This document shows positions 27,257 through 52,539 of a DNA stretch of 64,000 bases, in pieces (positions within the stretch are counted from its first letter, which is position 1; each line of letters opens with the position of its first letter). The notes under the pieces were generated by a model. It searched no databases, was not told the DNA's origin, and saw nothing but the letters and a program-made list of their open reading frames with translations. Made by a program: the position numbers and the translations under genes. Origin of the DNA: Tubiluchus corallicola (taxonomy: Eukaryota > Animalia > Priapulida); NCBI GenBank assembly GCA_030141605.1, contig JAQGDQ010000100.1, positions 568,706 to 632,705 of the forward strand, read 5' to 3'.

Positions 27257-52539
<25,283 letters not shown>

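Follow-up and report, generated by a model that had tools for sequence, protein, structure and literature searches.

A candidate docking element inside the exon 14 cluster of a priapulid IR25a gene is complementary to the acceptor tails of two alternative exons

The window analysed here is a stretch of 64,000 nucleotides of genomic DNA from the priapulid Tubiluchus corallicola, and it carries on its plus strand a gene whose exon map was built by tblastn with IR25a and GLR-7 proteins. The N-terminal exons were matched by IR25a proteins in tblastn and the amino-terminal domain is present. With exon 12 as the query, the named matches were mostly IR25a or nematode GLR-7 proteins with 72-80% identity (among the 120 matches listed), and PF00060 was found in the exon 12 gene product, in which the ion-channel domain is present. 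Judged by these sequence matches, the gene is a member of the IR25a co-receptor family, IR25a being the co-receptor common to protostome ionotropic chemoreceptors and usually taken as a single protein. Tail to tail with it, at 54080-58153 of the minus strand, lies an open reading frame of 1,357 codons that encodes a chaoptin-like leucine-rich-repeat protein, of which the best match is from Priapulus caudatus (48% identity) and the other 119 matches listed reach at most 32%. The IR25a exons that matter for the present analysis are as follows.

27257-27335, plus-strand gene, predicted signal-peptide exon (exon 1)
44654..44853, plus strand, constitutive exon 13 (tblastn with IR25a proteins; joint to 14a in an RNA-type contig)
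46201..46333, plus strand, alternative exon 14a, 133 nt, encoding part of the ligand-binding S2 lobe (spliced 13-14a-15 contig; open frame)
48381..48513, plus strand, alternative exon 14b, 133 nt (intact AG/GT, open frame)
50154..50286, plus strand, alternative exon 14c, 133 nt (intact AG/GT, open frame, alignments)
51432..51498, plus strand, constitutive exon 15 (joint from 14a in the RNA-type contig)

Three versions of an exon that builds part of the ligand-binding S2 lobe of IR25a are thus present. A contig from sequencing run X6 joins exons 13, 14a and 15 with GT..AG ends and contains 14a alone. This run was chosen by its species label. None of the listed runs that contain the stretch is recorded as RNA, and that X6 is RNA is a guess, although its GT..AG joints speak for splicing of the transcript. 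Neither 14b nor 14c was seen in spliced form in the runs examined, 14a being the exon in the one RNA-type contig found. Over 46078-46333, runs X5 and X6 carry the same species label and differ by approximately 4-5% in 14a and 7-10% in introns, which suggests from sequence divergence that these samples represent a divergent population or a cryptic species. Intron 13 also contains, at 45068-45356, a short sequence with inverted ends that is probably a small mobile element, over which the read depth of runs X1, X4 and X5 is raised.

Exons 14a, 14b and 14c are old, because their DNA identity is 60-62% and 13 of their 33 fourfold sites are shared. Given that 133 nt is not a multiple of three, zero or double inclusion shifts the frame. 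The reading frame stays open with any single exon 14 and runs into an early stop with zero, two or three of them, and such transcripts would likely be subject to decay. The segment aligns with the kainate-receptor S2 lobe, its first residue being positioned at the Glu of MESTSIEY, which we take to bind ligand (equivalent to GluA2 E705). This residue is Asp in 14a and 14b and Ser in 14c, at a position occupied by Asp or Glu in almost all aligned relatives. A homologue search with the 43 amino acids of exon 14a returned no match. A 14b-like exon on another contig (P0122) is 70% identical to 14b, and no sign of the tail motif described below was seen upstream of it in any frame of the read-through translation, a comparison by eye that is weak given indels and uncertain orthology. 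In a tree of the 43-residue segment that is mostly unresolved, 14b grouped with P0122 (97/86) and 14c joined both weakly (90/39), while the priapulid exons grouped with neither crustacean exon type.

Swapping of the same exon is found in crustaceans. According to RefSeq/GenBank labels, isoforms differ by a swap of this S2 segment in 7 of the 11 arthropod species groups with at least two records, namely three Penaeus, Panulirus, Scylla, Macrobrachium and Petrolisthes, and no swap was seen in the other groups (Procambarus, Portunus, Tachypleus and Periplaneta). A barnacle gene model runs both exon copies together. Among 17 distinct metagenome contigs, three contain two tandem 133-nt copies with the same bounds in crustacean-like IR25a genes:

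L012:4894-5644, crustacean-like doubled-exon locus, metagenome
L014:1695-2148, crustacean-like doubled-exon locus, metagenome
L015:7409-8131, crustacean-like doubled-exon locus, metagenome

These crustacean pairs have two copies versus three here. An alternatively spliced exon near the C-terminus of IR25a is also described for the copepod Eurytemora affinis (PMC5714493, File S1). Two side observations concern the metagenome contigs. A paralogue of the L014 locus (L017:217-460) retains the first variant exon only, and its downstream intron resembles, by eye, a deletion product of the L014 cluster. In the L012/L013 contig the IR25a locus occurs in two copies that form an exact inverted repeat, which may be an artefact of assembly. 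Searches for mutually exclusive exons of IR25a, Priapulus, decapod splice variants and alternative ligand-binding-domain exons, and for a priapulid exon cluster or RNA-structure control of its splicing, found no such report in a literature in which subscription journals were thinly covered.

The intron between 14a and 14b contains a 24-nt element, 416 nt downstream of 14a and thus inside the cluster, that had been proposed as a docking site for the 3' splice-site regions of the alternative exons. The element and its proposed partners are listed below.

46750..46773, plus strand, candidate internal docking element (ATE1 R3-like) in the 14a-14b intron (best two partners; shuffle tests)
48354..48377, plus strand, 14b partner, ending 3 nt before the intron end and covering the pyrimidine tract and likely branch region
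50123..50139, plus strand, 14c partner, ending 14 nt before the intron end
46169..46181, plus strand, weak 14a partner (12/13 Watson-Crick, -12.2 kcal/mol)

Recounting agreed with the originally proposed pairings of 46750-46773 with 48354-48377 (20 Watson-Crick pairs, 1 G-U and 3 mismatches) and of 46754-46770 with 50123-50139 (14 Watson-Crick pairs, 2 G-U and 1 mismatch). Both strong partners lie within the last 3-30 nt of their introns, and the b and c tails, although their exons are old, have 14 of 19 letters in common over the paired stretch (by eye). The duplex energies with the element are -23.1, -20.8 and -12.2 kcal/mol for 14b, 14c and 14a, respectively. On the plus strand of the window, the 24-mer has its best partner in the 14b tail and its second best in the 14c tail, with the third-best site at -18.1 kcal/mol. 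The reverse scan identified the element as the best partner within the cluster for the 14b tail and for the 14c tail, but not for the 14a tail. The third pairing, with 14a, is indeed weaker as had been noted (12 Watson-Crick pairs and 1 mismatch) and is not distinctive: in a grid count that misses matches across tile borders, 54 of 1,596 windows equal it by energy, and in a sliding scan the tails of two constitutive acceptors, those of exon 6 (37875-37892) and exon 7 (38316-38328), score as high. The 14a partner is probably not functional. The exon 6 and 7 tails match as well as that of 14a, so the element could in part be complementary to an acceptor motif, or a branch motif, of general use in this genome. 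Five of the seven best plus-strand sites (score of at least 11) are acceptor tails, two of the seven belonging to these constitutive exons. A pattern search gave four exact matches, namely the element, both tails and an inverted copy described below; the pattern was built from these sites, and hence this count is no test of chance. Branch points could not be placed, because a YTRAY motif occurs in only 4 of 17 intron tails. A U2-like role of the element was considered and dropped, as there is no resemblance.

How often an equally good shared partner would arise by chance was then asked with the targets fixed as the last 40 nt of each intron. The first model was a nearest-neighbour one with loops of up to 3x3, and under this permissive energy scoring the shared score for b and c was reached by 76 of 684 shuffles. 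Leaving out the microsatellite (12/126) or limiting loops to at most 1 (37/282) also gave no significance. Permissive models give high scores to long, G-U-rich and loopy duplexes. Once the permissive model had failed, ungapped Watson-Crick scoring was adopted, and with it none of 1,500 and none of 800 intron shuffles reached the shared b and c score; a repeat in three settings gave 0/1,159, 2/819 and 2/951. The score was likewise not reached in any of 19 real blocks of 5.9-6 kb, and among 91 pairs of constitutive acceptors, one had an equally good shared partner in each setting. By the same scoring, 3 of 1,500 shuffles equalled the 14b match taken by itself, and 318 of 1,500 equalled the 14c match, which on its own is not significant. 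With a compact 20-nt energy probe, the best partner of the 14c core in the a-b intron is the element (2/128 shuffles), while the 14b core gave 11/100. The expectation that the duplexes would outdo shuffled controls is thus borne out by strict pairing but not by the permissive energy models, under which about 1 in 10 shuffles does as well. It follows that complementarity of the same bases to at least two exon-linked sites exceeds chance for 14b and 14c by Watson-Crick scoring and does not by permissive energy. Taken together, the shared complementarity to the 14b and 14c tails is above chance by strict pairing and mixed by energy models.

A somewhat unlikely explanation, though the best of the alternatives considered, is that the element is a chance match to an acceptor or branch motif that 14b and 14c inherited when they arose by duplication, with exclusivity resulting from weak splice sites, splicing factors and the combination of reading frame and nonsense-mediated decay. 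It is favoured by the outcome of the energy models, by the prevalence of acceptor tails, two of them constitutive, among the best plus-strand sites, and by the grouping, albeit weak, of 14b with 14c in the tree. Furthermore, every exon combination other than a single one leads to a stop, and crustacean-like clusters exist without such an element: in the three metagenome loci, five of six tests were null (272, 366, 127, 150 and 58 of 400), and the sixth gave a shared-partner count of 4/400 in the downstream intron. These three clusters are too distant from this locus to gauge conservation, and the divergent sample X5 gives no coverage of the element or of the b and c tails. Against a chance match, column shuffles that preserve the likeness between the b and c tails never reached the observed score (0/1,542, 0/1,111 and 0/1,480), in agreement with the original argument that similarity of the partners to one another does not account for the complementary element. 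The rarity of the 14b match in the shuffles also speaks against it, and no other tile behaves alike when the cluster introns are divided into 960 24-mers: only three tiles, all overlapping the element, had two to three alternative-acceptor tails among their top five partners, whereas 952 had no such tail and 5 had one. The introns flanking the cluster yielded no significant shared partner, and the intron between 13 and 14a is without a comparable element.

Folding in sequence context separated the three partners. In co-folding, the helix with 14b was kept at flanks of 30-90 nt, and its expected number of pairs was 20.6-20.8 whether the temperature was 37, 15 or 5 °C. The helix with 14c held with 30 and 60 nt flanks and was lost with 90 nt, and that with 14a never formed (0.0-0.1 expected pairs). 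The suggestion that one element has several competing partners stands for 14b and 14c by Watson-Crick statistics, while 14a drops out in context. Three further structures near the element or within the cluster were considered.

46701..46732, plus strand, local hairpin partner of the element, a competitor (-13.4 kcal/mol, z 0.09)
46611..46674, strand not assigned, near-perfect 28-bp hairpin ending 76 nt before the element (single-copy, judging by the depth of run X1)
49378..49388, plus strand, shorter sequence of the b-c intron that may be a second docking element (10 Watson-Crick pairs and 1 G-U with the 14c tail, 8 Watson-Crick pairs with the 14b tail)

The first of these raises the possibility, which we regard as improbable, that the element resides mostly in a local hairpin (46701-46773) and that long-range pairing is minor or conditional and tunes exon ratios only slightly. 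In a fold of the whole 2.07-kb a-b intron, the element had 17.1 expected pairs in the local hairpin and 0.5 with the 14b tail; in addition, the hairpin partner is transcribed first, and at 37 °C it takes 5.9-7.2 kcal/mol to open the element. However, equilibrium folds of 2-kb introns are unreliable, the hairpin is no more stable than shuffles (101/200), and it was fully displaced by the 14b helix when the two neighbourhoods were co-folded.

Given the arrangement of element and partners, we compared the cluster with exon clusters governed by competing RNA structures. In human ATE1 (bioRxiv 10.1101/2020.06.04.134791; PMC7797038), the intron that separates exons 7a and 7b contains region R3, which can pair with either R1 or R4, each just upstream of an exon. 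This pairing hides one 3' splice site, as was demonstrated there by compensatory mutation (bioRxiv 10.1101/2020.06.04.134791). The present cluster is alike in that a shared element follows the first alternative exon, in the next intron, and has look-alike partners that overlap 3' splice sites, and pairing here would likewise hide an acceptor, as the positions in the sequence suggest. A shared element inside the cluster with partners over the 3' splice regions was indeed found, while stable pairing with the acceptor of the upstream exon, 14a, was not. Unlike ATE1, the present case has three exons rather than two, comes from an invertebrate and has an exon length that is not a multiple of three. 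In addition, both strong partners lie downstream here and the upstream partner is the weak one.

By contrast, the systems named in the original prediction (Dscam1, 14-3-3zeta and Mhc) proved to have the wrong layout: docking sites there are in a flanking intron (PMC6071210), whereas the present element follows 14a and so lies within the cluster. The Dscam1 exon 6 docking site is described as preceding the whole cluster and activating the exon with which it pairs (PMC4691838, PMC6071210). The likeness consists of one element complementary to sites upstream of several duplicated exons, and the difference is that the element here is inside the cluster, downstream of its first variable exon rather than upstream of it, and would cover an acceptor tail. 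In 14-3-3zeta, Mhc and MRP1 the docking sites follow the cluster, and srp uses bidirectional pairing with both flanking introns (PMC6071210, PMC4691838). These systems share with the present locus competing long-range intronic pairings, candidate ones here, in a cluster of exons that is mutually exclusive there and putatively so here. A downstream docking site with selectors downstream of the exons, as in 14-3-3zeta and Mhc, is not what was found here, since the partners lie upstream of their exons and the element upstream of both strong ones. Direct activation of the Dscam1 exon 6 type, in which pairing of the element with a tail would activate the exon directly downstream, is a very unlikely explanation: the partners sit just upstream of each exon like the exon 6 selectors (PMC4691838), but the position of the element downstream of 14a would bring the 14a donor, and not that of exon 13, near 14b or 14c and favour double inclusion, and the pyrimidine tract of 14b is covered by its partner, which stops only 3 nt short of the exon.

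The reading that we prefer, and to which we give roughly even credence on the analogy with ATE1 R3, is that the element pairs with the tail of 14b or 14c, hides its acceptor and thereby favours 14a. We infer that in cells the element in the pre-mRNA would pair with one tail at a time, masking that 3' splice site, and would thus act as a predicted silencer, leaving 14a as the default exon. Paired with the 14b tail, it would block both 13-to-14b and 14a-to-14b splicing; paired with that of 14c, it would cover the branch region there and loop out 14b. Exon 14b or 14c would then be used when the element sits in its local hairpin or on the other tail. The predicted default, 14a, is the form present in the one RNA-type contig. 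Because only one acceptor is hidden at a time and two are left free, the element alone cannot enforce a choice of one of three. The remaining exclusivity could come from the reading frame and decay, and possibly from the second element at 49378-49388 acting on the 14c tail. Additional balancer pairings are described for Dscam1 (PMC12962786), and they leave the acceptor-masking interpretation unchanged. If the pairing is true, it would represent an ATE1-type acceptor-masking switch outside vertebrates, extended to three exons. It would also fit a model (PMC6071210) in which duplication of an exon together with one stem arm creates competing structures.

The second element persisted in co-folding with 14c at all flank sizes but alone is not significant (27/308), and its similarity to the first element is not significant either (173/500). 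The sequence it lies in is found a second time in the window, in the opposite orientation.

30654..32858, minus strand, 2.2-kb copy of 48811-50995 in inverted orientation, which takes in the second element as well as 14c with its acceptor tail (self-BLAST, alignment)

The two copies are 96.3% identical over 2,207 columns with 59 substitutions, and the 14c acceptor is altered in the inverted copy. Read depth in run X1 is approximately doubled over 48.9-51.0 kb, and run X4, which comes from another study and cannot place the copy, yields contigs with two insertions typical of it. The doubled depth and these copy-typical insertions indicate that the inverted copy is not an assembly error. It probably sits in intron 1 of IR25a according to the gene model, because the predicted signal-peptide exon would splice in frame to exon 2. 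If intron 1 were still attached when 14c is made, the copy would override all short pairings at 14c. From within intron 1 it could form a very long duplex, attract editing or promote circular RNAs.

These features can be joined into a wider scheme, which we offer as speculation and consider doubtful as a whole. Here the two internal elements (46750-46773 and 49378-49388), each hiding one acceptor, would form a three-way switch, and the young 2.2-kb inverted copy, as part of the same joint claim, would overlie this switch by pairing with and silencing the 14c region across approximately 16-20 kb. The choice would then be among three versions of the IR25a ligand-binding domain, one of them without the conserved acidic ligand contact. 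Both copies of the 2.2-kb sequence begin beside a GT microsatellite.
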